DNA of 63,510 bases, filler included, from Asterionella formosa (lineage: Eukaryota): the NCBI GenBank assembly GCA_002256025.1. It is 14 parts of 14 records of this genome, joined end to end, with 100 filler letters (N's around TTAATTAATTAA, not from the genome) between each part and the next. Parts side by side here need not be neighbours in the genome. Positions count along the whole stretch, not along the records: positions 22,900 to 45,601 come from NKIB01002641.1; 13 more parts are not named here. The stretch is one strand, 5' to 3'. The position numbers and the translations under genes were made by a program. Positions within the stretch are counted from its first letter, which is position 1, and every line of letters begins with the position of its first letter. The notes beneath the pieces are model-generated. The model did not search any database, was not told the DNA's origin, and worked only from the letters and a program-made list of their open reading frames with translations. Below are positions 5,061 through 63,510 of the stretch, one piece after another.

Positions 5061-7809
5061 AAACCTATACTCCATTGAACGAATTTGAAAGTGAGAGGAC
5101 ATATTCAAGCTGGTCTAAGTCTCAAGATATCGTCAGTTGCATAATATTTTAGAAGACATCAGATATCAAACAGCAAATGGTGATTCAGTAAGCTTTGGAA
5201 AGGCTCTCACTCTTCGTCAAGGTTTTGGATGATCAATGATGACCAGCGTTTACATTTGAAAGTATCTATCATATGATGAACCTCAATCGCTCTCAGTTAA
5301 ACAAGAGCATTCAAATTTTATAATATTTATATCAACCATATTTTTCACTGCACACATGTTTAAAATGAAACCATCCAAGCCAGCCTTTACCCTGGATGTG
5401 TGCTTGTAACTAGATTGAAATCATCACTTCCTCAAATTCAGTCCACCTTGTACCTGTAGTCAGTGCTAGAATGTCACGTATGGTACCAAGCAATAACTAG
5501 AGATCCTCTACCAGTCCTCAAACTAGAGTAGATAGTGCTGTATATATCAACTTTTAGTCTACTGGCTCTGTCTATTTGTATAGACTTAGTAACTACTGGC
5601 AAACATTGTCAACAAGGACTTGCCTTTTGATCATAATGTAGCAAATGGCAACAAGAATTACCCGATTATGTCTATTTGCAATTAATTGCTATTGAATTAC
5701 AAAAGGAAGAATTGATGACATTTACAAGCTTGTGGAATTTGAATATAAAAAGGTTCTTTTCTTCAATCATTGGTGCAATCATCTTGCCACTCCACCATCT
5801 CACGAAATAAAAGGAGATCCCAGTCTAGACCTTCCAATACTTGTGTGAAAAAGTCGTGTTAAAGGAATTGTTTCAAGAACAATGAAGGTGATTTGAGAAA
5901 ATATTTTGCACAAATGAGTTAATTATTTCTAACTATGGCCTATAAAAATATCTTATTCTCGGGTACTATGGGAAAATCCTAATGATTGATAAAACTGTAA
6001 CATGTTGATAACCTGCAATCGTGAACGCCACACTGGACTGAATTGAAAGCAGACTTGATGGGTTCAGTGGGTATCAAGTGACGGAAGTCGCACAAACATT
6101 ATCAACACAATCAACAATATCCACATTCTCCAGTCAAGCAGAAGTGACAACATCTGCATTAGCAGGAATGGGGATCAGATGGAAAAGATAGTCAAGATGG
6201 TGCAAGCATTGGTGGCAGAGAGATCCACATAACAGTTACCTAATAGCCTAAGCAACTCATGAATTGATGGAGGATCTAGACTCTGCTGAACAAGAAATTA
6301 CCATCAATCAAGAAGCTGCTCCAGTGGACACAATTCAGCAACCAACACAGTTAAACACACACAGCACCAGTCTAGCCAGAGGCATCAGCACCAAAGTAAA
6401 TAGAGATCAATCCTTTGTCAGTAATGAATATATGGAGTGGCATACAACAAGCAAGATGCAATGCAAGAAAGGCAAGATGACAGGGAATCAAAATGGAAAG
6501 TCCTATTCCACCTCAATCACCGCCAGCAAGGACTGCATCACAGAGAAGAAAAATCAGGAAAGTGAAGGCGGCTCAGACTACAATAGAAAGCTCATCATGC
6601 ACATCTGAGAGTGAAAGCATCCAAGCAGAAACAGAAGAAACAGATAGTGACTTCTCACAGTAGCGCGGAAGGCCAAGAACTAAAAGAATATCTCATGCAC
6701 AAACCAGTGTGGCTAAAAAAGGGATGGGAAAATTTTCACAGGAATGGTGTACAGATAATAGAAATAAATATCTAATAGAATTTATCAAACTAGTCACCTC
6801 GGTCTCAACAAGGAACGTCTCTACATTCTCTTGTTCGTATATTTCAAACTGATCAAAGGACAGAATTCTATCAGCAATTTCTTTTTTTGTTGTCAATATA
6901 TTGCTAGAAAATTAATTATCAAAAATTAACCTCATCTGTGTTAGGCTAGATATACATGCGAAATACGAATGGTTCATTGTTGACTCTTGTGGAGATATTG
7001 GCTGAGTCTGATCCATTTGTCATGGTCAATACAAAGATGTTTAGCTAATCATCAACCTACCGGTATATACATATTTGGCAGTACAAAATCAAGTTTACTT
7101 AAGTATGTGAAACATAATATTCCGCTATAAATATTTGTATAATGAACTGGTAGTCCTATATATGGATACGATAAGAAACCGACGGTATCCGCTGCTGCTT
7201 GGTACCTTGGCTATCATGCAAAGATTTTCATACATGAGCAACATACCGATACAGTACATGCTTTTATTTAAGGAGTTACTGACCTTTGAGATTTCCACCC
7301 CATCTTCAGATATCATTGTAAATTAAACATGCATGTGTTGCGCATTTTCTAAGCATATTAGTACTGCACCAGGTAACAGCATTATATTGCAGCAAGTACC
7401 AGTATGTCGTGAAACAAACCCAAATTTACTGATGATTTCGATAAGAAGCAAAAAGAGTCATCTAAAATTTAGTTTGGAAATTTCTGTCATAGATAGAAAC
7501 TATTATTGATTTGCTACATAATTCGTCAAAAAATTAAGCACGAATTCCCCAGACTAGTAACTCATTATGCAAAAAGTGTAGGGGACCGGAATGCAGGGCG
7601 AACAAAATCCCTGCATGATATCAAAAGATGATGTCTAATACTAACTTATTGTGGCTATCATCTGATTCAGAACCTGGTGAGCAATAACTAGAATTGGAAC
7701 ATACTCAGACATCAATAAAACGCCGACAAAAGCAGATACTGGCTGCTGCAGAGGCGAAACAAAGGAAGGAAAATTAGAAACAAGCACAACCTAGTACATT
7801 GAAGATGGT

Positions 7810-17031: not shown

Positions 17032-17473
17032 GATTGATCAGTTGCAGATACGCGAAGAAAATTGACCACTGTAAATTGTTTTTCCTCTTTTTATGATTCT
17101 CTTGTCTGCATGTGTTTAGGTGTTGCTGTACTACCGGTACATGCATTATTACGAAGCAAAATAATGTCCCCATGATATTGTGAGATTGACAGGTTCGTAC
17201 CTGTGTACAGGTATATATGCACTCTCCGACATTATAAGCTTACAGTACCAGGTACAGTACCCTGGTACCACTGATACTTTTATTATACCAGTAGGATGGT
17301 GAATACCGATATGAATATGTAAAATTGTCGATGTATGCTGGCATTTCCCATTTCCCTGAGCGGTATTTGCTACATTCTCGAATATCGTTACCGTACTTGA
17401 TGGTGGAGTCGTCATCATTATAAGAAGCCTAAATCCTGTTTCTTCACATCGCTACCAGGTGGAGCAACTTCAG

Positions 17474-17562
17474 CAAGTTGCGGTTTTTGTGTTGAAACTA
17501 AAACTTAAGCTTTTTTTTCTCCGATATTAAATTGTTTATTCAAGCAAAATGTCCGCAACTTG
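17474..17562 (-). mobile_element. MITE copy (89 bp), TSD CAG
   Basis: cag|CAAGTTGCGG...CAAAATGTCCGCAACTTG|cag; reverse-orientation homolog of 37106 and 46432. Confidence 0.85.
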
Positions 17563-20500
17563 CAGATTCTTTAGCACTCGAAAACAACAGAAAATTACTT
17601 ATCTATAATTGACAAAAAAACAAGAAGCAGTTTACTACAGTAGACAATGTGGGGACGTGTGAATGTTTACATGAGCATACATATGTACACGTCACCATTG
17701 CTATCTTACAACCTGTCATTTGTAAGGCATGCAAGATAAAAAATATGACTACAAGCTGCTGAGTCCAACTTAAATAGGGCAGGTCTTAAAAGAGTTACAA
17801 TTTAATTTTTTTTGTATCTTCAGAAAAAAATCTTTACAGAGATACATTTCACAAATGTATCTCAGTTATGGCAAAACAGTTAGCCTTTTTAGTGTCTCTG
17901 CAAACATGTGCATCAGACTCAAAAGAAAGCAGCAAAATTATAGCAATGTGGTATAAGAACCACTCCTGCTGCACATCATCACCGCCTTCCACTTGCACCC
18001 TGAGTTGGCTGTCAAGACAGCTGATGCATATGCATGTGGTTGCAACTACCAACAGTACTTCACTTGTGCCTTGGCTCCCACATAAGACACATATGAAGAG
18101 GCCAAGGAGCGCATTTGCATCCTGAGAAACCTGTTGTTGCCTCTGGCCTAATGGCATGTGTTCATTCCTACTTTACTCATTCCTCTGCTCCTGAACAAGA
18201 TTCCTTTGCTGAGGCCTTGGAACGCATGCTTGTATTGCAGGATGCTGCATTGTTGACAAAAACACTCCACTTGCATCCACCTGCATCCAGAGTTGCCACC
18301 AGCAGTGAAGGCTACCAAGGTATGCAGTTGTATCTACTTATCCTTGATGGCTGCTCCCAATCAAGACTTGTCTATAGACAGATGAAACAATTATTGGGAA
18401 CCAGGTCAGGAGAGAAAGCTTCAAAGAGCGCCTCCATATGTTGGATGTTGCTAATGCACCTACCAAATCAACTCATCAACTTGGTGATGTGTCTCAGTGT
18501 TACTTCTCCGATTCTTACAACGAAAAAGAAATGAAAGAGAGCTACGATGACCACCATTTTGAATACAAAGAAGACTTATCTCATGAACACTTGTGTGAAA
18601 GTCTCTCAACGGTTATTGTCAATAGTCGTTCAACACTCATGAAACCTTTGTGAGCACAAAGGATGATGGTGAGGGTCAATTGTCGCGCTCTCCTTCTCTT
18701 TTACGTTGTTTGTCTATGACAAGCAAGGGCGCTCAAGCACATCAAACCCTTTTTTATCACTTTGCATAAACCATACAGGTATATATATATTGTCACAAAA
18801 ATGATTAAGTTACAACAACAAGCGTTGTCATGCAGATAAAATAATTTAATTTCACGTGATGTTGAGTGAGTGAAAGCAGTGCATATAGTTTTTAATTATT
18901 GGATTGATAGGCATCCTAGGTATTGAATTGATAGGTATCAAACTGGATCAAAACTGAAGTATACCTTGATGTGAGATGATTTGCATTCTTGTGTTTGTTA
19001 CCTATTTGATTTTTATTTGTCCATGGAGTTTTTGCTATCCATTTACTTGAAGCTAGGAAGAATGTTTCTGAATTTGAGGTTTTGCCAACCTTGCATAGTT
19101 GCAATGTCAGTTTAGAACTGTCGATAATCACGAAAACCTGGCCGCTTNNNNNNNNNNNNNNNNNNNNNNNNNNNNNNNNNNNNNNNNNNNNNNNNNNNNN
19201 NNNNNNNNNNNNNNNNNNNNNNNNNNNNNNNNNNNNNNNNNNNNNNNNNNNNNNNNNNNNNNNNNNNNNNNNNNNNNNNNNNNNNNNNNNNNNNNNNNNN
19301 NNNNNNNNNNNNNNNNNNNNNNNNNNNNNNNNNNNNNNNNNNNNNNNNNNNNNNNNNNNNNNNNNNNNNNNNNNNNNNNNNNNNNNNNNNNNNNNNNNNN
19401 NNNNNNNNNNNNNNNNNNNNNNNNNNNNNNNNNNNNNNNNNNNNNNNNNNNNNNNNNNNNNNNNNNNNNNNNNNNNNNNNNNNNNNNNNNNNNNNNNNNN
19501 NNNNNNNNNNNNNNNNNNNNNNNNNNNNNNNNNNNNNNNNNNNNNNNNNNNNNNNNNNNNNNNNNNNNNNNNNNNNNNNNNNNNNNNNNNNNNNNNNNNN
19601 NNNNNNNNNNNNNNNNNNNNNNNNNNNNNNNNNNNNNNNNNNNNNNNNNNNNNNNNNNNNNNNNNNNNNNNNNNNNNNNNNNNNNNNNNNNNNNNNNNNN
19701 NNNNNNNNNNNNNNNNNNNNNNNNNNNNNNNNNNNNNNNNNNNNNNNNNNNNNNNNNNNNNNNNNNNNNNNNNNNNNNNNNNNNNNNNNNNNNNAACTGT
19801 ATCTCAACAGTCCTAATGTAAATGCAAATGTTCCAAAAGAAATGGAAACATTCAAGGGAGGGCGGTCGATGCCATTAAAATAGCATGAGAGTTCCGTTCT
19901 GTTGAATCATCATACATGGGGAACTAGTGGTAGCAACAAGAGAAAAAAGTAAGCAACGGTGGGAAACCCACACCTAATGGAGAGCAAAGATGCAAAGGTG
20001 CAAGCAAACTGACTCCATGATGCCGAAAAGCCCACACATTGAGCTACTGAAGTCGCCAAGGCTGCTTGATCAACATCACATGTGTTCATGGTAATAAGCA
20101 AGTGGAATTCTTGGCTTGATTGCTCTTGCAGCCAGACAATGCATCCTCCCACCACAGCAACAAACTTAAACATCCCTGTGCACTGTTGATTGATGTGTAT
20201 TCAGCTGAATGGAGCTGCCTTCTTACATCGAAAAATCGCTTGAGTAATGGAAGCACAACCGATGACTGAAAACAGAGCATACATAGTTAATAATCACATA
20301 ATTGCATGCACCGTATCAAAGCATAATCATACTTGTTGTTTTGTGTGTGTCCGTTGACTCAAATGATGACTCAATTATATTCCCGTTGTTATGGAAATGG
20401 CAAATTCCTTAACCCATGAGGCCTCGTTTTGCAATCTCTCCTTCGGAAGTACGTACCGGTACTCCACAACGAGTCCTGCTATCGATGGTGAGAAGCGCGC

Positions 20501-32633: not shown

Positions 32634-34448
32634 GTGCACAAAGACTAAAGTTTGGGTAGCCATAGTACTAAAGCTGGTATGTTATTTTTTAGCTTTCAGT
32701 TGGATGCCAATTCTATCATGCCATTACACTTGCTTCATTCTCTCTGACAATGGTGGTGAATATCTCCAGATCTGCTTTGTCATTAGACCTGCCATGGTTG
32801 TATTCCAACTTATTTCCACAATTGTTCATTGTTGCCAACTGTTGCAATTATTCTTGACTTTCTATCAGTCAATCTTTAGCTAGTCTAATCTCACAATTTC
32901 TAGAACTTTTTTAAGAATCTGCTAAAAGGTGGCTTGGGGCTGCCAAAAGATAGAAACTATTTCAGGACCAAGGTTGTGGATGCTGACAGTTCCCACCCCC
33001 AATTTACATGTTTAGAAAAGGAAAACAATACTTGGACATGTTCCTGTGAATGGTGCTCCATGGGTCTATTTGATTTGATGGTCGCTGTTTATATCATCCC
33101 ATGGAAGCAGCATTGAGTCCTTCCAACCAAGACTGAAGATATGTGTCTTAGTAATTTTTCATGCTATGACTCTTCTTTAATTTATCATATAAAGTATAAG
33201 TAACAAAGAGATATTTAGGTTTTCAAATTGGGCCTCAAAGAGAGTTTGAAATCAGCAAGCAAAAATGTTGAATAAAGTATTTTGAAGACTTTCTTGCACT
33301 TCTTTGGACAACCAGAAAGTAGTTGCCTACATCCAGCACTCTATAGCCACATCAAGTGAATCCATGCTTTCTCCTTTTGATTTGAAGTCAGTGAATTCAG
33401 GTTCATCAGAGATGACATTGTTCTTGCTTACAAATTTCATCACTTTATCACTGCATTACAACACATTAGAGAAGGAGGTGCCAAAGTCCTCTAAGAAATA
33501 AAGGGAACCCCAAAAGGTTGCATGTACTAGCAGAATGACGATAATGTGCTTGATGTATCCATGTATGTTCATGTCCCTATCCTGGTCAACAAGAAACATG
33601 ATTGAGTAAAGGCGGTTGAGCATATTTGTGTTATACTTTCATTAGAGAACATGGTCTATTCATATATTAATGACACAATTGATAGACTAACAGGTACCAT
33701 AGTGGAATACCTATATCAGCTGTTAAATTTGCTGTCAGGAATGTCTTGAAGCCAGTCACCTAATATTTTAATTCAGGCTTGCAGGCATAGCTAACTGAAG
33801 ATACCGGCACTGTGTACCTGGTACCTGTATCCTGGTAGGTTGGAATTTCTTGTTATAAAGAATCAACATCTAGGGTACTGGTACCTGTAAGATCTACCTC
33901 AGCCGTCATGTCCAACCAAAGCTGTGAACTTCCATGATAAATTCATCTGGTAGATGTGTTGGCAAGTACCGGTAGCTATGATATATATAACAATACCCTT
34001 AATATTTTTTATTCTGCTGGCCACCGCACACTGCCTGCTTCAAAAAAAATGTTTGTCCCTTTTGCTCAGCTATGTACCGGTATGAATGCCACTTCATCCG
34101 TGTAGCTATTATACGTACTGAAGGTTCATCCGTTGAGTGTTCTGCCACCATTATACAGTATATTCCGGCATGTATATTATTCTATTTTTATTGACATCCT
34201 TTGCCTTCAGGAGTACGGGTGGTACCAGGTACCAGGTACTATTTCTCAGTGCATTTTGTATACCGTACTCGTCCGGCACTTTTGCAATTGCTAAAACAAA
34301 AATACACCATCTTGGAGAATGCAGATATATTTTAATAATTGTCTCGTAGTCGCTTGATTTCAGCGACAGTCACATTTTATCACTCACCACCACAGTCATC
34401 ATAATTGCAGGCCCCAACAAATTTAACAAAATCTGAAACAGTTTGAAA

Positions 34449-35531
34449 ATGATTGCTCGTTTCGTCCAGTCTCCGGCTGTTGGTTCGTCCATCTCTACTC
34501 TTTGTCGCCACTACTCGACCACGAAAGTCTCCAACGCTCGCTTGGTGATTGCTGTCGGTGGCAATGCCTTGCAGCGACGAGGAGAACGGTTGACCATTGA
34601 AAACATGCTCAAGGCGGCCGCCGATATGGCACCCACCATTGCCGCCTTAGCAAAAGAACACCAATTGGTATTAACGCACGGCAACGGCCCTCAAGTGGGG
34701 GAATTGGCACTGGAGCGATCGGCCGCATCCTTTGATGTGCTGGGTGCAGAAAGTATGGGTCAGATTGGGTATGTTCTGGCACAAGCACTTCATTCCGTCG
34801 GATGTCAAGCCGTACCTATATTGACCCAAGTTGTTGTCGACCCTGCGTCTGACGCCTTTAGAGACCCGAATAAATTTGTGGGGCCCATTTATGGTGCCAA
34901 GGAAGCAACGGCACTGGCACAATCCCTTCAATGGACAGTCAAGCCAGATGGAGAATACTTTCGTCGCGTCGTGCCATCGCCACCACCTTTAGAAATTTTA
35001 CAAATTGATGCCATTACGACCCTTCTAGAACATGCCCCACATGTGTTGCCCATCGCATGCGGAGGAGGGGGCATTCCTGTAGCAAGAGTACCGTCGTGTC
35101 CATCGACCCTCATGGGAGTGGAATGTGTCATTGATAAGGATGTGTGCGGAGCCAAGTTGGCGACGGATATTGAAGCAGACGGATACATTATATTAACCGA
35201 TGGTGGTGGGATTTGGGAACGGTACGGAAAACCCGATGCCAGGGAAATGAAAATGGCATCACCTGAATATTTGGAAGGAACCAAGGCAGGAAAGAATTTT
35301 CCTGGGAGTATGGGTCCCAAGATTCAAGCCGCGATTGATTTCGTCAATAAGAGTACTCGTACGAATGCTTGGGCTGCCATTGGGGACTTGCGGGATGCTG
35401 CCAAATTGGTTAGCAACGAGGAAGGAACAATAATTAGGCACGATGTTGAAGGCGGAGTCATTTGGAGAGAAAGGAAGGGGACTGTAGTGATTTCCCGTAA
35501 GGAGAGCAAGGAAGCTCACAAGAGTGGATAA
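34449..35531 (+). CDS. arcC: Carbamate kinase with probable mitochondrial presequence
   Basis: VIAVGGNAL, THGNGPQVG, PNKFVGP, RRVVPSP, GGGGIPV, VIDKD, GSMGPKI; Arg/Ser-rich N-terminal extension lacking acidic residues. Confidence 0.95.
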   Translation: MIARFVQSPAVGSSISTLCRHYSTTKVSNARLVIAVGGNALQRRGERLTIENMLKAAADMAPTIAALAKEHQLVLTHGNGPQVGELALERSAASFDVLGAESMGQIGYVLAQALHSVGCQAVPILTQVVVDPASDAFRDPNKFVGPIYGAKEATALAQSLQWTVKPDGEYFRRVVPSPPPLEILQIDAITTLLEHAPHVLPIACGGGGIPVARVPSCPSTLMGVECVIDKDVCGAKLATDIEADGYIILTDGGGIWERYGKPDAREMKMASPEYLEGTKAGKNFPGSMGPKIQAAIDFVNKSTRTNAWAAIGDLRDAAKLVSNEEGTIIRHDVEGGVIWRERKGTVVISRKESKEAHKSG

Positions 35532-35987
35532 GCATAATGTCAATTCTGAATGCTACAATTGACAAATTCAAGTTCATCAGATTGAACTTGTGCTATGCAT
35601 AAAAACAAAGAATTTTGTCTTTAGAAAAAATAGACCCAAAGCAAAAAGCTTTAAAAATTGGTTTAGTTTTATTCCGGCGCTTTTTACACCACTGCTGTCC
35701 CACTCTATCCAACACAGACCAGGAAGTCACAATCGAAACCACTCATGCCTCCTTTCTGTTCAGTTTTCTTTTCTGCTTGGTTTACTAGATGCCATTCCAA
35801 TTGCGATTGACTTGTACCATCATACGAAAGTATCATTTTCATTGGAGTCTTGATTCGCCTAATTGTTGTCTAGCAGCTCTATCCTTGCCATGACAACAGA
35901 ATTAACAGCAAATATATTCCATATTGGGCGCTGGGAGCAAACAACTATGGTCTAGCAATGAAAGGCTTGGGCAGCAATAGTATATTG

Positions 35988-36181
35988 TAAACTGCAGCAT
36001 CTAATGCATTACCACCTTCTTGAATGTTGATGACTGTGATGGTGCCACCAGAAATTGGGATGACTGCTGTTGTGATGTCCACAATTATCTTGTAAATTGC
36101 AGCATTTAATGCATCACCACCTTCTAGAATTGTCATATCACGTTGATGACTCTGATGGTGCCACCAGAAATCGGGATGACT
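35988..36181. repeat. Imperfect tandem duplication (~105-115 bp period)
   Basis: tgcagcat.taatgcat.accaccttct and gttgatgact.tgatggtgccaccagaaat.gggatgact each occur twice. Confidence 0.8.
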
Positions 36182-36350
36182 ACCAGCAGGTAACAGGTAC
36201 CGGTAATGTCGTGATCATGTCCACGGCTGGTTGCATCAAGATGATAATTATAGTGGTATGCCACGTAGAACTAGTCCAAAATATTAACCTTATCTCTATA
36301 GGTGTAAGGAATATCACACCAATTTCTTTCCTTCGATCACTTCATAAGAA

Positions 36351-36713
36351 GGGAATGGATTGGTGGTTACTAAGCATGTTGCCTTTGATCTGAGGTTGTG
36401 TGGTTCGATTCCCGCAATTTTTTGAGAAGCAATTGTTGGTTTCGACTCCCACACTCCTTACAGTCCTGCATGGTCATGGCTGGTGTGCAAGAAATGGTGG
36501 GTTGACCCCCTATGCTTGTGCCGCCTTCCTAGGCAGTGGGAGTTTTCCCTAATGCTTCGGCTAATACAATCACCTTTTGTGAAAGATTTGTGCTTGGGAG
36601 TCACCTATGCTAACAAACTAGGGAAGCACAGGTCTTGTTAGCAGGCCATGCTATGAAAGAACCGTGTGTAACCACGAGGTCTTAGAAAGCGTGCTATAAG
36701 TGATTACCCTTTT
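36351..36713 (+). mobile_element. Putative tRNA-derived SINE-like element or structured ncRNA
   Basis: A-box-like tggattggtggttactaagc; B box GGTTCGATTCCC (36402-36413); second B-box-like 36438-36450; body 36497-36635 homologous to 51421-51571. Confidence 0.55.
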
Positions 36714-36791
36714 ATAATAGATATTAGTTTGCAATTAACCTTAAAATGATTATCCTGATACTGTTGTAATGGGTTTCTCAAATTATTGGTT

Positions 36792-37096
36792 CCAATTCAA
36801 GGACTGCCTTTTAGCAGGTCCAAATCAAGGTACACATTCTATGGGCATGTCCAAAACAAGGTATACCTTAAATTGGAACTGATGATCTTGTTGGTTAACC
36901 AATACAAGGTAGATGCGACCCTATTTTGGAGAAACTATTCATGCCTTGTATTGGAAAACAATTATGGTCATTTTGTGAAATACCGTGTATTGGGATAAAA
37001 GAGCCTATTTCCTTGTATTGGCCAAAGCACGGATTCGCAATACTAACTACGAAGCTAGCCAATACAAGGTCAACCTTGTTTGGATTCTTCCAATAC
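36792..37096. repeat. Cluster of ~10 CCAATACAAGG-like 11-mers in both orientations
   Basis: Forward at 36792, 36820, 36851, 36899, 37059; reverse at 36866, 36944, 36983, 37011, 37074. Confidence 0.85.
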
Positions 37097-37105
37097 CGGT
37101 ACAAG

Positions 37106-37192
37106 CAAGTTGCGGTCATTTTGCTTAAACCAACAATTTAACCTAGGATAAAGACAGCTAGATCTTTAATTAAGCAAAATTACTGCAACTTG
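37106..37192 (+). mobile_element. MITE copy (87 bp), 23-bp TIRs, TSD AAG
   Basis: aag|CAAGTTGCGGTCATTTTGCTTAA...TTAAGCAAAATTACTGCAACTTG|aag (21/23 TIR match). Confidence 0.9.
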
Positions 37193-37341
37193 AAGTTATT
37201 TTCGTTGCCTGTGTACCGGGAGTCAATATTGATGTTGACACGAGTAAGACAGCATCTTTCATTCTTTAAAATAGGATTGCTCCAACCAATGTGGACATTT
37301 CTGCACACTGACAATGAATCATCACCATCGTAACAATAACT

Positions 37342-39765
37342 ATGAATAATAAAACCAACAAGCCGAACGACGGGCCATCAGCACACGAGAAATCTTCCGT
37401 GAGCCGCGATGTAGTTGTAATACCGAATGATCGCATCGGCATCCGGTGTTTTCGCAACAATGATGACGGCTTGCCTAGTATCATAGCAAGTCGCTCAACG
37501 TTACTACCGGTATTGGAACCCACCACCACCACAGGCGGACATGAACATCATTCAGCTGCAGCTCCGAGTTCTCCTGGTATGCCTCGACAGTCTGATGATG
37601 GTCTCAATGTGGTATCACAAGCCAACCGACAAGAACCACAAGAAGATACTACTAGTATTCTGGTTGTGGAGGAACAAAAGGGAGACACGGGTGTGCACGA
37701 GAATAACAACGATACACCTGGGATGACTGCTCCGGGCATGTCGACGAGAAACAGAGAATTTCTCTTGGAGAAAGAGACTATTGCCAGAAGAAGTAATAAT
37801 GTTCACAAACATAGAGGGTCGTCAGCAAAGAAAGGTGATGGTGTTAGCGGCACCGTGCAGGTGGCGTCTGCAGGAAGTACCATTGGAGCGGAGAAGCTAG
37901 CTATTGCCAATAGACGCTCTAGAACTAAAAAGGAGCGCAATTTAGACGGAAGAAAATTGGAATATACTAACATGGAGGAGCACAGTTTCACGGATGTTCA
38001 TCAGGGCGAATCACTTGATGAAATGGATGAAGTTTCCGGCAGAAAGGATACTGAATTGATCTCAGCGCCTACTGTAAACGAAGAAAGATCGATTTCCCCC
38101 TTGATAATAACTAACCAAGGCTCAGCAATTCAGGGACGCCCTGCTGTTCTGCCCGGCGCCTTCCATGGCATTCCCACAAATATTCCTACACGGAGCGCTA
38201 GGCTTCAGCAATATGATTCTTCCTCTGAACTTGAGGCGGGAAATCTGGTCCTTAACTCAGATGCTGCTGCTACTGCTGCTGATCGAGCCGAGGATATTTT
38301 ACTGGAAGCTCAAGTTGTCGACGACACGGAACTTATACAGGCGTATCCCCTCGTGGAGTTGCCACTAGTCGAGCTTAATCAAAATGAGGAGTTACCGCCA
38401 AGGATTCAAAGTACTACTCGACAAAAATGGAGAATTGGGCTTGCATTAATTTTTCTGATCGCTGCAGTGATAATTGTATTAGTTGTTGTTACGCATGGGA
38501 ACAGCTCAGGAGCCACGACTGTTTCTCCAATAACATCACCAGCTGCCAACACCACTATTTCACCAACTGAACCAACTCCAACACTTTCTCCGACTGGAAC
38601 ACCATGGATACAAATCGGCCAGGCTTTGAATGGAAAAGCCGCTAATGATAATTTCGGGTGGTCAGTAGCTATATCGGGCGATGGAACGATTGTGGTCGGT
38701 GGTGCTAGGACGAATGATGACAGTGGCACGGACTCCGGTCTTGTTCAAGTCTACCAGTTAATCGACAACCAATGGGAAACCATGGGAAATGCTTTGTTAG
38801 GACTGGCAATTGGTGATAATTTTGGCTGGGCTTTAGACATATCGCGCGACGGACGAACTTTGGCTGTTGGGGCAAACTATAACGATGCAAGTGGGACTGA
38901 TGCTGGAAGTGTTCGTGTATTTCAATTCATCAGTGGGGAATGGCAACAGGTTGGTCAAAATTTGAATGGACCTGCTAGTGGCGATTGGTTTGGTCACGCG
39001 TTAGCACTTTCTAGTAATGGTACCATACTCGCTGTTGGTGCACAGTTTAATGATAATAACGGCTTTAATGCCGGTCTTGCGCAATCGTACCAATTCGATG
39101 GTAACCAATGGCAAGTAATGGGAAATCCCATTTTGGGAGAAGTAGGCGATCACCTTGGTGCTGTGAAGCTTTCCAATGATGGATACACGCTGGCGGTTGG
39201 AGCGGATTTGAATGATAATGGTGTCGATGGCACGAACGCTGGCCATGTTCGAGTGTTTGAGTTTGATGGCGCCGATTGGCAACAAAGTGGACTCGATTTG
39301 CGTGGATCCGTAGCATATTCTCAGTTTGGATATGCAATCGCTATGTCAGGCGACGGAAAAATTGTTGCAGGTGGAGCATACAACGGTAATGAGCCTTATG
39401 TTCAAGTGTACAGTTTCCAAGTCAATAAATGGCAAGAGCTGGGGTCTGCTCTCGTTGGCAACGTTAACAGTGGAGATCGATTTGGCAATCTATTGGACCT
39501 TTCTAATGATGGATATACTTTGGTAGTCGGTGCCCCTGGAGCCCAAAATGGAACTGGGCCAGGTGCCGGCTATGTTCGTGTTTTTCGGTTTATAGATAGC
39601 CAGTGGCACCAGGTTGGTCAAGATTTAGAAGGCGTGGTATTTGGGGATCAATTTGGCGATGCAGTCGCGCTATCAAGTGACGGAATGGTATTTGCTGGTG
39701 CATCCGTTGGAAATGACTACAGTGGGAGGGACGCTGGGAATATTCGTGTATTTTCATCCGTTTGA
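37342..39765 (+). CDS. Single-pass membrane protein with C-terminal FG-GAP-like beta-propeller repeats (807 aa)
   Basis: Disordered N-terminus, TM IGLALIFLIAAVIIVLVVV, Pro/Thr stalk, seven FGxxxxxSxDGxxxxxGA..GxVxVF..W-type repeats. Confidence 0.88.
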   Translation: MNNKTNKPNDGPSAHEKSSVSRDVVVIPNDRIGIRCFRNNDDGLPSIIASRSTLLPVLEPTTTTGGHEHHSAAAPSSPGMPRQSDDGLNVVSQANRQEPQEDTTSILVVEEQKGDTGVHENNNDTPGMTAPGMSTRNREFLLEKETIARRSNNVHKHRGSSAKKGDGVSGTVQVASAGSTIGAEKLAIANRRSRTKKERNLDGRKLEYTNMEEHSFTDVHQGESLDEMDEVSGRKDTELISAPTVNEERSISPLIITNQGSAIQGRPAVLPGAFHGIPTNIPTRSARLQQYDSSSELEAGNLVLNSDAAATAADRAEDILLEAQVVDDTELIQAYPLVELPLVELNQNEELPPRIQSTTRQKWRIGLALIFLIAAVIIVLVVVTHGNSSGATTVSPITSPAANTTISPTEPTPTLSPTGTPWIQIGQALNGKAANDNFGWSVAISGDGTIVVGGARTNDDSGTDSGLVQVYQLIDNQWETMGNALLGLAIGDNFGWALDISRDGRTLAVGANYNDASGTDAGSVRVFQFISGEWQQVGQNLNGPASGDWFGHALALSSNGTILAVGAQFNDNNGFNAGLAQSYQFDGNQWQVMGNPILGEVGDHLGAVKLSNDGYTLAVGADLNDNGVDGTNAGHVRVFEFDGADWQQSGLDLRGSVAYSQFGYAIAMSGDGKIVAGGAYNGNEPYVQVYSFQVNKWQELGSALVGNVNSGDRFGNLLDLSNDGYTLVVGAPGAQNGTGPGAGYVRVFRFIDSQWHQVGQDLEGVVFGDQFGDAVALSSDGMVFAGASVGNDYSGRDAGNIRVFSSV

Positions 39766-45601: not shown

Positions 45602-46431
45602 NNNNNNNNNNNNNNNNNNNNNNNNNNNNNNNNNNNNNNNNNNNNTTAATTAATTAANNNNNNNNNNNNNNNNNNNNNNNNNNNNNNNNNNNNNNNNNNN
45701 NAGATTTGTGACAAAAGGAAATAACATCGTAGTCACAAATCAAAAAAAGAATAAACATTTATTTTAAAATTATCAAACATGCTTTACTACTTAACTTGCA
45801 TCAACTATTCAATGACTTCCTGCAAGGCTTGCCAAGTGCAATAAGCATTTGCCAAGAGAATGATAAATGTGGGCAGCCATCAAGATTTGCAGCAATGAAA
45901 TGATGGAACAATGATGCCATGGTCTGTAAGCGTGTTGATCGTGATGCATGTATCAAAATTGTTTCAAACACAGTTGAACTCATGAAAACCTTATCTGTGT
46001 ACACAACACAGGATTCCATAAATTAATTTAGCCTTTGGTAGGATGCAGCTTCGATCTAGTACAAGGCAGCTACCGGACAATCGTCTTGGAGATCGCCGTG
46101 AAGGTGCTGATCTTCACTATGACTTCAACCGAAAATCATGGCTTCACCGTGTTCGTCTTGATGTTAGTAGGCAGTTTGATCATTTCTTTCTCGAACTATG
46201 ATAAGAACGATTGTCCGGTCGAGGTACACAGAATCCTGGTACTTCGTCAGGTAGAACTGAACTGATGAGGATGGTCTCCCTGATGTGTACATAGCAAATA
46301 TAATTTTTAACAGCGGCAAACTGTGTGTGGAACGTACGCGGTGGTGCTATTATCGTAGTTTCGGTATTCATGGTCTGCTGCATGGTCGCCTTGGGCGGTC
46401 GCTGACGACCTATGGGGGTCGTACATACCTC

Positions 46432-46519
46432 CAAGTTGCGGTCATTTTGCTTAAATAAACAATTCAATATGGGATAAAGATAGCTAAAGTTTTGGTTTCA
46501 GCACAATTACCGCAGCTTG
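46432..46519 (+). mobile_element. MITE copy (88 bp), flanks CTC/CTG
   Basis: CAAGTTGCGGTCATTTTGCTTAA...TCAGCACAATTACCGCAGCTTG; interior aligns with 37106 (caatt.aa...ggataaaga.agcta). Confidence 0.88.
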
Positions 46520-46734
46520 CTGTGATGGCGGCGATCAGCCATGGAGTATATACGTGTGTATCATACTACAGTATCGGTACATAGGACATTGCTTCTGCTT
46601 ACATTCACAAAAACCTCAAGGCCACAACTCAAGATTACATATCGGTATATTTATTACCGTAGCGATATAAGCAAAATAAAATAAACGGCAACTTTTGCTT
46701 GTCGTAACTTTACTCTTCCACCACCTCGACCAGC

Positions 46735-50000: not shown

Positions 50001-51420
50001 AAATTCTTTTTCTTCCATGTATGATTTGGAAAAAGATTCAATTTTGTGTTTCTGACTTTGTTTCCTAATCAGAGCATCANNNNNNNNNNNNNNNNNNNNN
50101 NNNNNNNNNNNNNNNNNNNNNNNTTAATTAATTAANNNNNNNNNNNNNNNNNNNNNNNNNNNNNNNNNNNNNNNNNNNNTGAGATCGAAGCAACAGAGCG
50201 TGATGAATTTGAACTTGATTATTCCACAGCGGCCACTGTCGCAAAGCGGGTAGCGGAAGTATAATGACGCTACCTGTGTGTCTGCCTCGTATCAATACAG
50301 GTTACTCCTTTTCAATCTAGAACCAGCAGCTAGAAAACCTTACAATACCCGAGCTGCCGCCAAACGTAGGATCCTGCCTTTTTGCTATGTACATTCATTA
50401 AAATATATATATGAATGATGTAACAGTCATTAACGGTTAATCATCATGACCCTTTTAATAATACATGTCACATATGGTGGCTGCAACTTTGCAATCACTC
50501 ACTTCACTCACCATGATGCAAATCTCTGTTTGTCTTGCTATTCCAATGATCAACCAGCAATGACTTCATCACTGAATCTTGGTTGTTCTTTGTGACAGTT
50601 AGCACTACCTCAGGTACCATTTGTTCCATTTTCCATGGGCTTGTTGGATACCTGAAATTGATTTTCAGTGACAAAGGGGAAAGAATAGGAAGGAACATGA
50701 CAAACAATAATGAGACCAACAAATCAAGGCACAGAAGGAGATCATTGCCTAATAGCATAAATCCAAAGCACAAGTTTTTTGATATGAAGAGACAATTAGT
50801 CAGAATTGCCAAAACCTTGGCGAGGTGAATGTCTTCAAGTTTCAATAAAAGTACAAGGATAGGAGAACAACATCTACAAATTTCAACATAAAGTAGAAGA
50901 AGGATATGATCCATTGACAGATTGAAAAAGGTTGCAGGAAGAAGGTAAAATAAAAATTGGAAGTGAAATGAAATGAGACAATTTATCAGTGTGTCTTGGA
51001 AGGGAGGGTTAATTGATTTTTGTGTCAATGAAAGAATGTCTTGTGTCAATCAAGGATACATGGTGGATGAAAGTTTTGACGATCTTCTGGCAAGCCGAAA
51101 ACATCAAGGCTAGCTGTGCCTGAGCCTGTATCATTCAGCTGGACAATCGTGCCACACCAAGCTTGCAACCTACAGGTTCGACTGTTTAAATTGATCTCAG
51201 GCCAAGGATATTGCCATAGCGAATGTCATTGGCAATGCTTGTGATGTTGTTGAAAGTTGTTTCAAGATGGTGACCAGTAAGAATACAATAATAGTATAAA
51301 TGTATTAACAAATAGATAGAATACAATAGTTGCTGTTTTTTGTGTATCCATAAAATATTTGAGACTGTTGCGCCAGATGTACAAGGAGGGTAAAGGACTA
51401 TGGGAGGTACAAGGCACCAA

Positions 51421-51571
51421 GTGGGTTCCCCCCCCCCTACAAGCAGCATGTGCCACCTTCTTAGGCAGTCAGAGTTTCCACTAATGCTGCATCTAGCTAA
51501 GAGACAATCACCTTTCGGAAATGGTGAATGGGGACTCACCTATGCTAACAAAGCTAGGCAAGCACAGGTCT
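51421..51571 (+). repeat. Second copy of the structured module at 36497-36635, truncated by contig end
   Basis: Shared gtgggtt..cccccta, tgtgcc.ccttc.taggcagt, ctaatgct, gctaa, acaatcaccttt, tcacctatgctaacaaa, ctagg.aagcacaggtct. Confidence 0.85.
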
Positions 51572-51671
51572 NNNNNNNNNNNNNNNNNNNNNNNNNNNNN
51601 NNNNNNNNNNNNNNNTTAATTAATTAANNNNNNNNNNNNNNNNNNNNNNNNNNNNNNNNNNNNNNNNNNNN

Positions 51672-53063: not shown

Positions 53064-53377
53064 NNNNNNNNNNNNNNNNNNNNNNNNNNNNNNNNNNNNN
53101 NNNNNNNTTAATTAATTAANNNNNNNNNNNNNNNNNNNNNNNNNNNNNNNNNNNNNNNNNNNNAGATGAGGTATGTACCACTGCCAAAATTCTACATGTA
53201 GAATTTTCAGTAGAATATATGCCCTCATTTTCGTAGAATATTCTACTCAGTCATACAAATTGGGTTAGGGTTAGCTGTGGGTTAAAAAAATAATTCTGTC
53301 TACCGGTAATCATTTGTACACACTGGCTGACCACCTGCCATCGTGCATTGTTTTGATAATAGGAGTACTTGTACCTG

Positions 53378-53400
53378 CAAGTCGCGGTCATTTTGCTGAA
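53378..53400 (+). mobile_element. Solitary TIR of the MITE family
   Basis: ctg|CAAGTCGCGGTCATTTTGCTGAA followed by non-MITE sequence; no partner TIR seen before the contig end. Confidence 0.65.
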
Positions 53401-56400
53401 ATTGATGACGTGACGCAGGACAGGCGTTGGATTAGATAGAAAACATCATCAATTCACTCTTTAAAATCTTCAGCATGCATGGTGATCAACAATTAGTGAT
53501 CTACTAGGTTTTATGCTAATTTTATTCTTCACAACAGGGAAACATCAAGAAAACACAACAATGACCGAGGCAATAGAGGGGCGGCCTGAAGCAAAGGACG
53601 TAAGAAACTAAACATAGCTTTATTCTCTCCAAACTCAAAATCGTATGATCATAAACATTTTTTTACCCAATAACAAACAAACGATTATATCTACAGTATG
53701 TCAATGCAAACAATGAATGATATCGACGGATTGATAGTTATAGTGCAGCAGGCAGCATTCAATTCGTTTGACCCAAAGCAATTAAATTTTCTTTCTTAAC
53801 AATACAGGAGGATCTTCTCAGATCCAATTTAGGCTCGAGAAGGCTGATTTCCTTGTTGAGGAATCGGTAAAAATGGCAAGAAGGGGGCAGCAATTTATCC
53901 ACACATTCCTTCCTAGTAACAGCAGCACCCCTCCACTCAATTGTGTGGCCAACCAAACCACCACAAGCACAAATGTCGACTCACACTTTCTTCACTGGTC
54001 CCAAGACAAGGTGATAGATTGATCCATATCGACGCATCTTTAGCACCTCCTCTCCAGAACCACTTTGCACTCCTTTACACATCAACAGCAGTTCGAGTGA
54101 GTACCACCACCAAACTTATCCCACCTGACAGCGCCAGAAGTCAATTCATGCGCTTTGCTGATATCAGGAGGGTTCAATTTGTACAACCCAGGCTGTTCAC
54201 ACCAGGAAACGCCATGCCAGCTGCCCTGTGATTGCAAATAGAGAAGTTTATTATTGGCGCTATAAATGTGAAGTTATAATAATAAATTATCAAAGTGCCG
54301 GAGTAGACTAATACCGGAGCAAGCACTACTACATGTTTAAGATATATTCTTTGTTTCCTTGCATACATCATGAAGTGCATCCCTGAGGACCTCTTTTGAA
54401 AGAGGTAAGGACAGAGAACAATGACAAGCATGAAGGAGGAGAGGAAAAGTTTAAGGGCCCCCAATATTGATCCTGACAAGGTCAAGTCCTCTTACAGTTT
54501 TATGACTCTGCAATCAGTCTGTAGTGTCACTACTAGGTAGTTCTTTGGACCATAGNNNNNNNNNNNNNNNNNNNNNNNNNNNNNNNNNNNNNNNNNNNNT
54601 TAATTAATTAANNNNNNNNNNNNNNNNNNNNNNNNNNNNNNNNNNNNNNNNNNNNTCACCAGAAACTATTGTCAGTTGACCCCAAAAATTATGTGGGTTT
54701 CTAAAATAATTATGGAAGTTATTGAAACTAATTTAGTTCGTTCCTATCATATACTAACTACTAGACGAAAACAACAAGGGTGGTGGTGGTGTGGTCGACA
54801 GTCTCTTCCTCGCAGACATCAAGAACCCGGTGTGTAGTATCGCCTCTAAACGGGTCAAGGAGTCGTTTACCGGTCGTGTACCGCTACGTGGTACCCTGGT
54901 ACCAGGTTACTATAGTCTAATTGTATCGTATATACGCACAGGTACACGTATCCTGGATTCAATCTCTGTCGATTTCGCGCGGAAATACTCACTCTTTTGT
55001 TGTTGTTGGGACTCAGCGTGTCAAGTCGTTTGGAGCACCGAACACACATGCCAACGCATAGCACCAAAACTCAACCACTTGAGGGGACATTTAAAATTAA
55101 AATGACTGCCGCCGGCGCGCAGTTCCGATCGAGCAAATTTACATACCGGCCGGTAATGGGGTACCCCTGGTACAAGGTACTATGGTAGGCCAACAAACTG
55201 ATCATCAAATTCGAATGTGCTGAAGAAGGGCTTATAAATTCAGCGGTTTGCAATTGTGACCTAATGCAAGCACACTCATTTGTATAGAATTTAGCGAAAT
55301 GCCTGCATGTGTGTTCCGAAACAATACTCCGGAATCCGAAGTGTGGTTACGAGTACGGTTCGACAAATACCGTAGTTATTTTACCCTACATACACACGTG
55401 TGAATCCTGAATATCATGTGATACTAAAGATCTAGTACCGGGTTACTCCAGTACTATCAGGTAAATAGATCCAAAGGTAGTGGTACTTCGCTGATAAACC
55501 ATAGATTTAAACCCATGCCTGTAGCCGGCAATAGCTACCAGTGGTAGGTGCAAATAATGATTGTGCTTAAAACCAAGACTTCAACGGTTAGTCTCGTGAG
55601 TATTTAGATGCCCACACAGGACTCGTCAATACATACCAAGGATAGCGCAATTCATGTATGCATATTATCAGCGAGCTTGCAGTACTTGTGTATGGCTGTG
55701 AAGCCATTGGACTCAATTGCAATATACATATATATATCGATGAATACCAGGACTAATCTCCTCTGTCACGTAGATTTCTATATATTCTTCATGCGCTTAA
55801 TGTAGAATCCTTATTTGAATTTGAATCGGCAGCGAGTCAGGCCGTCACTGGTTAGCGATTTGAATTTTGACAGTGCAAGATACGAAGAAACGTTTCTTGT
55901 CAACAAATTTTCATAGGATCATCGCTCTTTCGGGTGTGTCATAAAAGGGATTCTAGGCCATCTTGCTTACCTATTTACCTTCCTCCGTCCATGATGCTTC
56001 ATCTCGTTTGCTTAGCTCTCCTCGCTGTTGGGGTGGTCGCCCAACCCNNNNNNNNNNNNNNNNNNNNNNNNNNNNNNNNNNNNNNNNNNNNTTAATTAAT
56101 TAANNNNNNNNNNNNNNNNNNNNNNNNNNNNNNNNNNNNNNNNNNNNTGTTTGGCAGTAGTTGTTTTGTTTATTTCAACCATTTTGGATTTAGTGTCTCC
56201 AGTATTGCAGATTTCTTGTTGTTTCGTCATGTCTGCTGGAGTATAGTATGGAGTATAATAATCGATACTTGCATAAGTGCATTCTTTGCCTTGAAGACTT
56301 TTTTGATTTAGTTTATCTGCGTAGATGTTGCTTCAGTAATGGGTGGACTTTCAACCTTGCCGTAATCTCAAATCTAGATATGCTTAGCAATGTTTGTCTG

Positions 56401-59131: not shown

Positions 59132-60040
59132 TTGAACGACAGAGTTGATGGCTTAGTTCTACCACAACACTTACAGTCTCTTTTGAATCATTTGTCATCC
59201 TTCGGTTTTTCATCCTCTGCATAGTCCTCATCATCAATACAAAGTAATAGATCTTTGAATGATCAAAGTGTGTCAACATCTGTTAGTGCCATTCACATGA
59301 AGAAAAATGAAAATGGATGTCCAAGGTATGAACTGTATAAGAATCATTTGAGACACCTGTCGATTTGGCATGAATGGTTTGGTACACACTTCTTTGATCA
59401 CAATAATAATCTAGGGTGTTTCCAGGGTGGCATTTTTCAGCTAGAAGCGAAATTCACAAACCAATGGCGTTTCAATTTCACTCAAGCAGAAAGCAAAAGA
59501 TTTTCAAGAATCAAGCTAGAAGTTAAGCGCATTGAAGCCCTCATTTTGAAGACAAACAAAACATCAACAATTATTCTGCAAGTTGTAGATGATTCCTTAA
59601 CCAGCTTGAATTCGAAAATGATTACCATAACAAACATTGAGCAGCATCTGACAACAAATTTCGACTTTCTAGCATTGCAAATTTCTAATCAAGGTTTGAC
59701 ATCTTCACCATCAGCTACTGAGATGCCTGCAGTGAAGGCAAAAAGTGTCATCAAACCTACAGTTGAATTTGAATTGACAGCTAAACCTGCATACAAGGAT
59801 CATATTCCACAAACCAAAGTTGGAACCATTACTGAAGCAATTGAAGTAGCCAAAGTTGTGAAAGTTGGTGATGCATACAATTCTACATTGATGACAACCA
59901 GTATGTGTGATGTGTGTGGTGACATCGTCATTCAATTGCATCAATGTATCATCTCTTACAAAAAATCACATATCAGGCTATCAAATTGCAGGTGAGCAAG
60001 GAACAATATGTTCTAATTGTCTTGTCAAAAGTAAAGACGT
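59132..60040 (+). mobile_element. Second Crypton-type fragment (GCR1_C-like region plus Cys/His-rich tail)
   Basis: 59132-59702 closely matches the reverse complement of 57-636, then continues to CDVC..HQC. Confidence 0.78.
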
Positions 60041-60623: not shown

Positions 60624-62018
60624 GATACAAGTATCAGAGTTGTCTTTGCAATCACCATGCACAAGAAGACATGGACTTTGGAGGTCATTGACGTCGAAGC
60701 ATCCTTTCTTGAAGGAGACTTAGAGGAAGACATCTACCTTGAATGGCCTGAAGGCGTTGTTGAGTTTGGCTTTGAAGACAACAAGGTTGTCTCAGAAAAT
60801 TGTATTCTTCTAAGTAAAGCCATGTATGGAACAACGGTGCAGGCTGCGCGACAGTGGTACAAGAAACTTGTGGAGCGTCTGATTCTCATTGGAATGAAAC
60901 AGAGCAAAGTGGATCCATGCATTTTCTTCTTGAAACGTGATTTGAAATTGGTTCTAATTGTTTGTATCTATGTTGATGACTGCATTGTTGCAGGAGAACA
61001 AGCCGATGTTGACTGGCTTAAGGCTGAAGCCAAGAAGCATTTCACCATAAAGGAACTCGGACCAATCAAGAAACATTTAGGAGTTTGGTATGACTGGGGA
61101 GAGGATGCTGATGGAAGATTTCTTGAATCTACTATGAAGGATTTCGTTGAAGGAATGTTTGAAGACTATAAGAATCTCTTTGGACGTTATCCCGCAATTG
61201 CACCAACTCCCGGATTGCCAGGTACAAGTTTGTCCAAGAATGATGCCCACACTGTTCTACATAGTGAATACAGATCCATGGTTGGAAAAATCTTATACTT
61301 TGTAAAGAAGATATCTCCAATTTGTGCCAATGCATGTCGAGAATTGTCTCAGCATCTGGAGAATCCAGGAGAGGCTCATTGGAAGGCGGTTGAACGTCTG
61401 TTGGGATTCTTATATGCAGACAAGAAACATCGGCGTATGAAGATGCGAACCCCTAAAGAAATGCGCCAATGGATGTTGTTGACAGTGCATTTGCAATTAA
61501 CCCTGATACTCGCAAAAGTACAAGTGCATATCTCGGAACTATTGGAGCATGCTCCTTGGTGACTTGGTCATCCAAAGGACAGAACATTGTAACAACATCA
61601 AGCATAGAAGCTGAGTATGTCAGCCTAAGCGACGGTGTCAAGGATACTACATTTGTTACAAATCTATTGGATGAGGTCTACTATGTGGAACTGCCAGCAA
61701 TAATTGCTGAGGATAACACTGGAGCGATTTTCCTAAGCAAAAACCAACAAGTTGGATCAAGGACAAAGCATATTGATGTCAGATATCATTTTATACGTGA
61801 GAAGACTGAAGATGGATATGTTGTTGTGGTCTATGTACAAACATGTGAAAACCCTAGTGACCTGCTGTCAAAGAATGTAACTCAGAAGGTGCATGAATCG
61901 CATGCATATGATATTTGCAATGGGACAATGGATTGTTGGAACTGGAACAGGGAGGATGTCAAGATTTAGTACTGCGTGCATATTAGTTCAGTCGAACTAA
62001 TCAATCTTGAATAATATT
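60624..62018 (+). mobile_element. Ty1/Copia RT-RNase H fragment, frameshifted, with PPT and LTR start at 61957
   Basis: DVEASFL, LSKAMYG, YVDD; frameshift near 61465; then DSAFA..TRKS, EAEY, EDN, TKHID; agggagga-TGTCAAG. Confidence 0.95.
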
Positions 62019-62118: not shown

Positions 62119-63510
62119 AATATTATTCAAGATTGATTAGTTCGACTGAACTAATATGCACGCAGTACTAAATCTTGACATCCTCCCTGTTCCAGTTCCA
62201 ACAATCCATTGTCCCATTGCAAATATCATATGCATGCGATTCATGCACCTTCTGAGTTACATTCTTTGACAGCAGGTCACTAGGGTTTTCACATGTTTGT
62301 ACATAGACCACAACAACATATCCATCTTCAGTCTTCTCACGTATAAAATGATATCTGACATCAATATGCTTTGTCCTTGATCCAACTTGTTGGTTTTTGC
62401 TTAGGAAAATCGCTCCAGTGTTATCCTCAGCAATTATTGCTGGCAGTTCCACATAGTAGACCTCATCCAATAGATTTGTAACAAATGTAGTATCCTTGAC
62501 ACCGTCGCTTAGGCTGACATACTCAGCTTCTATGCTTGATGTTGTTACAATGTTCTGTCCTTTGGATGACCAAGTCACCAAGGAGCATGCTCCAATAGTT
62601 CCGAGATATGCACTTGTACTTTTGCGAGTATCAGGGTTAATTGCAAATGCACTGTCAACAACATCCATTGGCGCATTTCTTTAGGGGTTCGCATCTTCAT
62701 ACGCCGATGTTTCTTGTCTGCATATAAGAATCCCAACAGACGTTCAACCGCCTTCCAATGAGCCTCCCCTGGATTCTCCAGATGCTGAGACAATTCTCAA
62801 CATGCATTGGCACAAATTGGAGATATCTTCTTTACAAAGTATAAGATTTTTCCAACCATGGATCTGTATTCACTATGTAGAACAGTGTGGGCATCATTCT
62901 TGGACAAACTTGTACCTGGCAATCCGGGAGTTGGTGCAATTGCGGGATAACGTCCAAAGAGATTCTTATAGTCTTCAAACATTCCTTCAACGAAATCCTC
63001 CATAGTAGATTCAAGAAATCTTCCATCAGCATCCTCTCCCCAGTCATACCAAACTCCTAAATGTTTCTTGATTGGTCCGAGTTCCTTTATGGTGAAATGC
63101 TTCTTGGCTTCAGCCTTAAGCCAGTCAACATCGGCTTGTTCTCCTGCAACAATGCAGTCATCAACATAGATACAAACAATTAGAACCAATTTCAAATCAC
63201 GTTTCAAGAAGAAAATGCATGGATCCACTTTGCTCTGTTTCATTCCAATGAGAATCAGACGCTCCACAAGTTTCTTGTACCACTGTCGCGCAGCCTGCAC
63301 CGTTCCATACATGGCTTTACTTAGAAGAATACAATTTTCTGAGACAACCTTGTTGTCTTCAAAGCCAAACTCAACAACGCCTTCAGGCCATTCAAGGTAG
63401 ATGTCTTCCTCTAAGTCTCCTTCAAGAAAGGATGCTTCGACGTCAATGACCTCCAAAGTCCATGTCTTCTTGTGCATGGTGATTGCAAAGACAACTCTGA
63501 TACTTGTATC
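62119..63510 (-). mobile_element. Near-identical copy or allele of the Copia fragment at 60624-62018
   Basis: Reverse complement with the same end points; differs by a 3-bp indel and a few substitutions, including a CGA/TGA stop at 62797-62799. Confidence 0.95.

Follow-up and report, generated by a model that had tools for sequence, protein, structure and literature searches.

The internal T-run and body helices of a tRNA-derived SINE family in the diatom Asterionella formosa

The segment at 36350-36713 of the DNA analysed here is almost certainly a member of a family of tRNA-derived SINEs. The window, that is the whole stretch of 63,510 nucleotides taken from assembly GCA_002256025.1, is a patchwork of contigs with N spacers between them, and neighbouring pieces need not adjoin in the genome; the copy itself lies on contig C2641 (NKIB01002641.1). 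A freshwater diatom host agrees with the clusters closest to a retroelement protein nearby, mostly Bacillariophyta, and with the labels, largely algal or freshwater, of the sequencing runs that contain the element. It has the layout of a tRNA-derived SINE, a head, a body without known source and a tail, in about 365 nt, and it is an old, dead insertion. As a whole, the account that we regard as likely is one in which a tRNA-Ala-derived SINE would be transcribed by Pol III with read-through, and be inserted by target priming through a LINE of the stringent type, its body not being a catalyst.

A sequence-only reading of the same DNA had offered two possibilities, a diatom SINE or a structured Pol III RNA, perhaps ribozyme-like, with a pseudoknot-capable core. 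The former is borne out by the linkage of head and core in most copies, by TSDs, by a T-rich end and, in the main subfamily, by a LINE-related tail. The motifs quoted in that reading are all present where it placed them (Table 1), but its perfect 9-bp stem and its 9-bp GACTCCCAC pairing are private mutations of this one copy.

The family, its tails and a candidate LINE

A genome search with the copy gave 716 candidates, 40 of which were scored and yielded 41 matches, at 78-86% identity once the copy's match to itself is set aside. From 70 loci a set of 69 copies was assembled; 58 cover the core, or 54 once four near-duplicates are dropped. The consensus measures 363 nt, with a sharp common 5' start and a T3-4 end, and no ORF of 120 aa lies over the element. 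TSDs of 11-19 bp flank 30 of the 46 full-length copies, compared with 10 of 2070 mismatched flank pairs, and begin mostly with TA (17/30) or TT (8/30). The earlier remark that no TSD is evident holds for the copy in the window, where the best candidate is 9 nt long with two mismatches, but not for the family. Within the tail-B subfamily a TSD is kept in one of six copies. Head and core are linked: among 30 loci picked solely by their last 98 nt, a set that probably includes a few allelic pairs, 24 are still headed, two of these being interrupted by a gap or insertion, and six are 5'-truncated, with breaks at columns 51, 130, 146, 169 (two loci, with like flanks) and 242.

Two exchangeable 3' tails were found, tail A (415 candidates) and tail B (28 of 28 candidates). 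Mean divergence is about 6% for tail-A copies and about 13.5% for tail-B copies, and the copy in the window departs from the consensus in 40 of 297 columns. CpG sites have changed in 22.5% of cases and other sites in 6.8% across the family, the pattern of neutral decay. Copies also occur in tandem or in close pairs (L010:856-1600, L060/L061, L070, L208); at L010 the second copy stands after the TSD of the first, which suggests target re-use. Two sister SINE families, C1 (570 candidates; L216-L245, L006:1064-1300) and C2 (L198, L067, L016, L003, L026, L038), share its tRNA-Ala-type 5' end but have a shortened anticodon arm and carry tails of their own.

Table 1. Positions of the SINE copy, its parts and a second core copy in the window
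Feature	Position	Strand	Remarks
Full-length SINE copy, tail-B subfamily	36350-36713	+	intergenic; no recognisable TSD left
tRNA-derived head, first unit	36350-36417	+	acceptor 5' strand, D arm, first T arm
A box-like motif, in D arm	36357-36371	+	3-nt insertion in this copy
First B box, in first T arm	36402-36412	+	
T6 run (consensus T7)	36418-36423	+	place of tRNA acceptor 3' strand or terminator; predicted internal Pol III terminator
Second tRNA 3' half (putative duplication)	36424-36462	+	
Second B-box-like motif, second T arm	36438-36449	+	
Helix GACTCCCAC/GTGGGAGTT	36444-36452 / 36536-36544	+	
Strand complementary to element 5' end	36453-36459	+	
Discriminator-CC-like triplet	36460-36462	+	one change in this copy
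Proximal body, small hairpins	36463-36513	+	5-nt deletion in this copy
Core/body	36514-36645	+	
Upstream partner strands of loop	36514-36521 and 36526-36532	+	CTTGTGC..TTCCTAG at 36515-36532
Core hairpin	36520-36537	+	
GCTAA blocks	36560-36564 and from 36609	+	
Long core hairpin	36569-36594	+	broken in this copy
Stem TGCTAACAA/TTGTTAGCA	36608-36616 / 36635-36643	+	18-nt loop 36617-36634
Tail B	36646-36713	+	short arm, hairpin 36661-36680, complementary arm, TATAA motif, T4 end 36710-36713
Second core copy, head-less	about 51407-51571	+	end of contig C2651

The copy lies between ORFs at 34437-35531 and 37318-39765. Upstream of it is an 81%-identical tandem duplication (35981-36065 and 36086-36181), and downstream an imperfect hairpin (36813-36881). 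A MITE-like repeat of about 90 nt with terminal inverted repeats occurs at 37104-37199, 46425-46522 and 17471-17565, and weakly at 53348-53401. Near-identical pieces on separate contigs, 1-631 with 59132-59702 and 60624-62018 with 62119-63510, are probably alleles. The recurrence of the core near 51421, which the sequence-only reading had reported, is genuine (78% identity over 130 nt, E 7e-21), but that copy belongs to another contig, is head-less and is interrupted by the join at 51572. On contig C317 a probable allele of it, 97% identical, runs on into a shortened A-type tail.

An RNase H search brought out one decayed RNase H-bearing, LINE-like element (E 4.6e-5; L215:3905-5700, minus strand, contig C8526), the 3' end of which recurs at four other loci (69-77% identity; fragments in L197, L193, L058 and L206). 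Earlier tail profiles matched its 10-kb locus weakly, at best with E 0.75 at the right place. A profile built from four LINE-like 3' ends matched 36 of 39 tail-A copies within their last 45 nt (median 8.3 bits), as against 5 of 195 shuffled tails (best 1.7 bits), and none of 1000 shuffles did as well as tail A with any of three LINE-like ends. The same profile recognised 22 of 33 C1 copies weakly (median 1.2 bits) and none of five C2 copies. In tail B it matched one of 20 copies, at -1.4 bits, and 70-816 of 1000 shuffles were as good against a LINE-like end. Comparison with LINE-like 3' ends gives a match for tail A but not for tail B, the tail of the copy in the window.

The closing pair of the GAAA hairpin in tail A is T-G in 14 and A-T in 13 of 33 A1 copies, and T-A in all eight A2 copies, the kind of change that recognition of a stem by a LINE protein should leave, going by the available part of PMC4176376. 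By eye, tail B is laid out like tail A (arm, hairpin, complementary arm, TATAA, T end) and is presumed to be a LINE-recognition tail; searches of the genome for its partner LINE found none. The RNase H element is a candidate LINE by virtue of its RNase H frame and shared 3' end. Its reverse transcriptase was not seen in an RVT_1 search that scored 150 of 224 candidates. A protein search with the RNase H piece found none among 4298 candidates, Pfam applied to the two parts of that piece separately gave no RNase H, and PF14529 gave 0 of 42. The abundant RVT_1 LINE was rejected as a partner; it ends in poly(A) and has neither tail nor core in common with the SINE. Two LINE-type elements of the same genome gave no match to the SINE body. 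A young LINE family (L075, L105, L127, L130, L133) is spread over many small contigs in copies about 99% identical, with an endonuclease, an RT, a C-terminal zinc motif and a poly(A) end; at L133 it is rearranged in tandem and adjoins telomere-type repeats.

The head, the T-run and the route to full-length RNA

The head aligns with that of sister family C1 (0 of 2000 shuffles as good), and a C1 profile matches a nuclear tRNA-Ala(AGC) gene through the T arm and acceptor end. When the head is scored directly against tRNAs, nuclear Ala and Lys tie at 48 each. By way of C1, the parent of the head is probably tRNA-Ala. In C1 a full acceptor strand comes directly after the T arm; in the present family a T-run follows the first T arm, and the strand complementary to the 5' end follows the second. 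This arrangement suggests that the tRNA 3' half was duplicated and that the first acceptor strand decayed to Ts. No functional tRNA gene with cloverleaf and anticodon arm was found, ARAGORN reporting no tRNA genes in the whole window and Rfam no family of any kind at gathering score. An intron-containing tRNA was considered for the head and rejected, the bulge-helix-bulge being absent by inspection. A 7-nt repeat-like stretch was weighed as a telomerase template and set aside as too short.

The T6 run behind the first B box had been thought to stop Pol III in this particular copy. The run is indeed present, but it is a family trait, with a consensus of T7, and not a defect of the copy: among 48 headed copies, 28 have at least T6 and 44 at least T4, the youngest included. 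The boxes flanking the run on both sides are matched exactly at 51 places in the genome, and 30 of 33 copies of sister family C1 carry a T5 internally. For comparison, 30 of 62 tRNA matches were taken and organelle loci left out; in each of the 20 nuclear tRNA genes obtained in this way, the first run of T4 or longer lies no more than 14 nt from the gene end (nine T4, five T5, six T6). Given a family-wide T-run and host tRNA genes that end on T4-T6, no full-length RNA would be expected from plain Pol III transcription; such RNA probably needs Pol III read-through or some other route. In yeast, T6 is an efficient terminator, yet termination in vivo is only partly efficient, according to the accessible part of a preprint (bioRxiv 10.1101/2021.08.27.457903). 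Our literature search, which left most subscription journals outside, returned general papers on Pol III termination and no described SINE with an internal terminator. A family-wide internal T6-7, against a background of tRNA genes that end on T4-T6, offers a clean test of how SINE RNA passes a terminator.

We regard the following sequence of events as likely. Directed by the A and B boxes, Pol III would start at +1; the internal T6-7 would stop most transcripts, after about 70 nt, and a minority would read through. The partner LINE protein would bind the stem-loop of the tail, and the RNA would be inserted by target-primed reverse transcription, its terminal Us pairing with a TA-led target. 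The core would act as the SINE body rather than as a catalyst. As for the source of full-length RNA, we lean modestly towards read-through of the T-run.

A different origin, which we consider unlikely, would have the mobile RNA cut from Pol II read-through transcripts, with RNase P making the +1 end; what these two routes leave would fall to others. In that case the head would adopt an extended tRNA fold: its acceptor stem would pair the 5' end with the strand that follows the second T loop, bridging the T7, which would do no harm. At pair 1:108, A-T is found in 26 of 33 A1 copies, and 7 of 12 B copies have G-C, as such a stem might have it. The switch is suggestive but no proof, being a single event among 22 diagnostic columns and lying at the variable 5' edge (A-T in four of eight A2 copies). 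The Rfam model of tRNA-Sec aligns the head in the same register, although its E of 2.6, like the 6.2 of PreQ1, is at chance level. Forcing the fold costs 4.5 kcal/mol relative to the free fold, and the consensus has kept its A and B boxes intact, both of which count against this route. Contig data from four runs hold 930 family pieces in one metatranscriptome and four in a poly(A) library. All four of the latter continue into unlike sequence, which fits this route, but contigs show no RNA strand, start, end or expression level, and DNA may be among them. Among the contig pieces listed, none spans the entire SINE stretch. A composite scheme, in which the SINE amplified to hundreds of copies despite a strong Pol III terminator through RNase P release via the T7-bridging fold, with pair 1:108 compensated from one subfamily to another, and in which an old long-range helix, also present in two sister SINEs, works as a two-state module beside the LINE-binding tail, strikes us as rather improbable.

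Helices of the core

The stem TGCTAACAA/TTGTTAGCA, described by the sequence-only reading as a perfect 9-bp stem, is perfect in the copy in the window and in no other of the 54 copies. The consensus has five Watson-Crick pairs in a row at this place, or eight with G-U, and 12 of the 54 copies reach nine with G-U; the copy in the window gained pairs at decayed CpG sites. Likewise, the 9-bp pairing of GACTCCCAC with GTGGGAGTT exists in this copy but in only one of 51 measurable copies, the consensus having seven. Decay can produce helices that look perfect in one copy of a repeat. The complementarity of the loop to the upstream strands, another element of that reading, is a property of the consensus: it comprises 8 + 7 bp, and 3 of 500 shuffles match both helices, although 222 of 1000 match the 8-bp helix alone.

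Folding is not exceptional for 36440-36720 (z -1.49, 15 of 200 shuffles), and the consensus core gives z -1.11 (25 of 200). Competing folds were computed at -48.1, -46.6 and -44.7 kcal/mol, the stem and the upstream helices lying within 3.4 kcal/mol of each other. Since about 15 bp formed from a closed loop of 18-19 nt would be sterically doubtful, alternative folds appear likelier than one pseudoknot, and the loop-upstream helix most likely alternates, at similar energy, with the stem that encloses the loop. In 26 copies, none of the 32 pairs compared has changed on both sides, where shuffling predicts 1.6, and the 54 copies together show no excess of two-sided changes. Covariation is thus not seen, in a test of little power: the family is young, and its subfamily masters are nearly alike in the core. 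Paired non-CpG sites of the core have changed in 5.7% of cases and unpaired ones in 3.7%, so that paired sites are not slower. With copies decaying neutrally and paired sites not spared, the structured Pol III RNA of the sequence-only reading is not supported as a conserved gene; given the low power of the covariation test, the core may nonetheless have a structured role inside the SINE RNA.

It is tempting to speculate that the core is a two-state RNA module, a kissing loop or a switch, selected in master copies for a function such as presenting the tail or protecting the RNA. The idea seems to us possible but doubtful. The 15 bp of loop-upstream pairing in the consensus would suit it, as would the sister families, which retain a helix before the tail with a paired change. 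In the C1/C2 body, the 3' strand of this helix stops just short of the tail; the helix has T-A in 10 and G-C in 6 of 18 rows at one pair, and its covariation score exceeds those of 500 of 500 shuffles, with the kinship of the copies uncontrolled. Collinearity of the core with the C1 body is matched by 14 and 26 of 1000 shuffles, but the figures rise to 117 and 44 for the C2 body, local alignment of the C1 body with the core is not significant (651 of 2000 shuffles), and a covariance model of the sister body, with 20 matches at E 3.2-9.5, hit no core in sense and none of the cores in 16 loci. The lack of two-sided change also weighs against a selected switch, as does a subfamily-wide change by which the long hairpin loses pair 111-124 in 10 of 26 rows. 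Judged by these comparisons, kinship of the C1/C2 helix with the core is uncertain, and the loop-upstream helix is possibly an old helix common to two sister SINEs.

A role of the core as a self-cleaving ribozyme, now or in the past, whether HDV-like or of a new class, is very improbable. In its favour, the small hairpin with TCC in its loop, directly 3' of the long-range helix, and the GCTAA blocks resemble HDV-type parts. A strict HDV-type descriptor, run without a positive control, matched neither the consensus nor any of the 54 copies; a relaxed one matched 45 of 54 but also 29 of 100 shuffles, and at a different hairpin. The nested double pseudoknot of P1, P1.1, P2, P3 and P4 with a catalytic C in J4/2 was not found. 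Rfam models of the hammerhead, twister, pistol, hatchet and hairpin ribozymes gave no match in two copies at E up to 10, and a hammerhead or twister box is absent. In the part of PMC5786205 at hand, 5' ribozymes are described in several LINE clades, and an internal cut would strip the head. Most copies retain the head, which argues against self-cleavage, and 5' ends do not gather at a cleavage site, 24 of 30 loci being headed and truncations falling at five columns. The absence of covariation adds to the case against the ribozyme-like pseudoknot first proposed. We give scarcely any credence to the idea that the repeats are pseudogenes derived from a conserved non-coding RNA gene under Pol III transcription. 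The A and B boxes and the family sequence in RNA-library contigs might be so read, but a composite anatomy with swapped tails, the lack of an Rfam match and the lack of diverged relatives in metagenome or viral contigs point the other way. The metagenome pattern scan returned eight loci, two family copies and six unrelated, with exact patterns that would miss diverged relatives; viral contig patterns gave 0 and 7 matches, all seven unrelated outside the pattern.

Related elements and other observations

The tRNA-derived SINEs known as SINE2, as presented in the available portion of Kojima's 2018 article (PMC5786205), resemble the present family in the tRNA head with promoter boxes, the body without known source, the LINE-related tail, tail exchange, TSDs and high copy number. 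The present family differs in having the tRNA 3' half twice, with a T6-7 inside the element, in its diatom host and in ending T-rich rather than A-rich; its body was compared with Rfam and with two LINE-type elements of the genome, and no source came to light. With the stringent LINE tails of ZfL2-1 and ZfL2-2 (PMC4176376, in part) it shares a 3' stem-loop, in tail A, kept by paired changes and common to a resident LINE-like element, but here the partner is a decayed, putative LINE with an RNase H, and tail B is without a partner found. The HDV-like ribozymes of R2, RTE and L1Tc, cited in the accessible text of PMC5786205, likewise offer a pseudoknot-capable segment in a retroelement, and the GCTAA motif, whereas in the present family the segment is internal and not 5', P1 and P1.1 are missing and the head is retained.

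A diatom SINE class has been listed for Phaeodactylum tricornutum: the part of PMC5859163 available to us counts 13 putative elements totalling 1,454 bp, in contrast to the hundreds of copies, TSDs, subfamilies and sister families described here. Diatom SINEs are otherwise barely described in the literature searched, most subscription journals lying outside it, and PMC8147415 does not contain the whole word 'SINE'. A group of related diatom SINE families, described together with their TSDs, tail exchange and candidate partner, should help annotation.

Two coding-like sequences were also met. The translation of a 642-nt contig (C9266, L118), probably a contaminant, resembles what we take to be mammalian L1 ORF2, and a 1058-aa open frame on the minus strand of contig C10287 (L108:3333-6506) presumably resembles a telomerase reverse transcriptase.

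A circularly permuted tRNA-Arg(ACG) gene, its 3' half before its 5' half, lies at L032:1553-1642 (contig C317, probable allele of C2651), and further permuted loci at L212:1-90 and L213 (contig C5169, about 5110-5220). The accessible part of a 2026 review (PMC13578239) names no diatom case. The search gave three of three candidates only, with no unpermuted copy among them. The complementary flanks differ between two of the loci, and the halves, when rejoined, form a clean cloverleaf.
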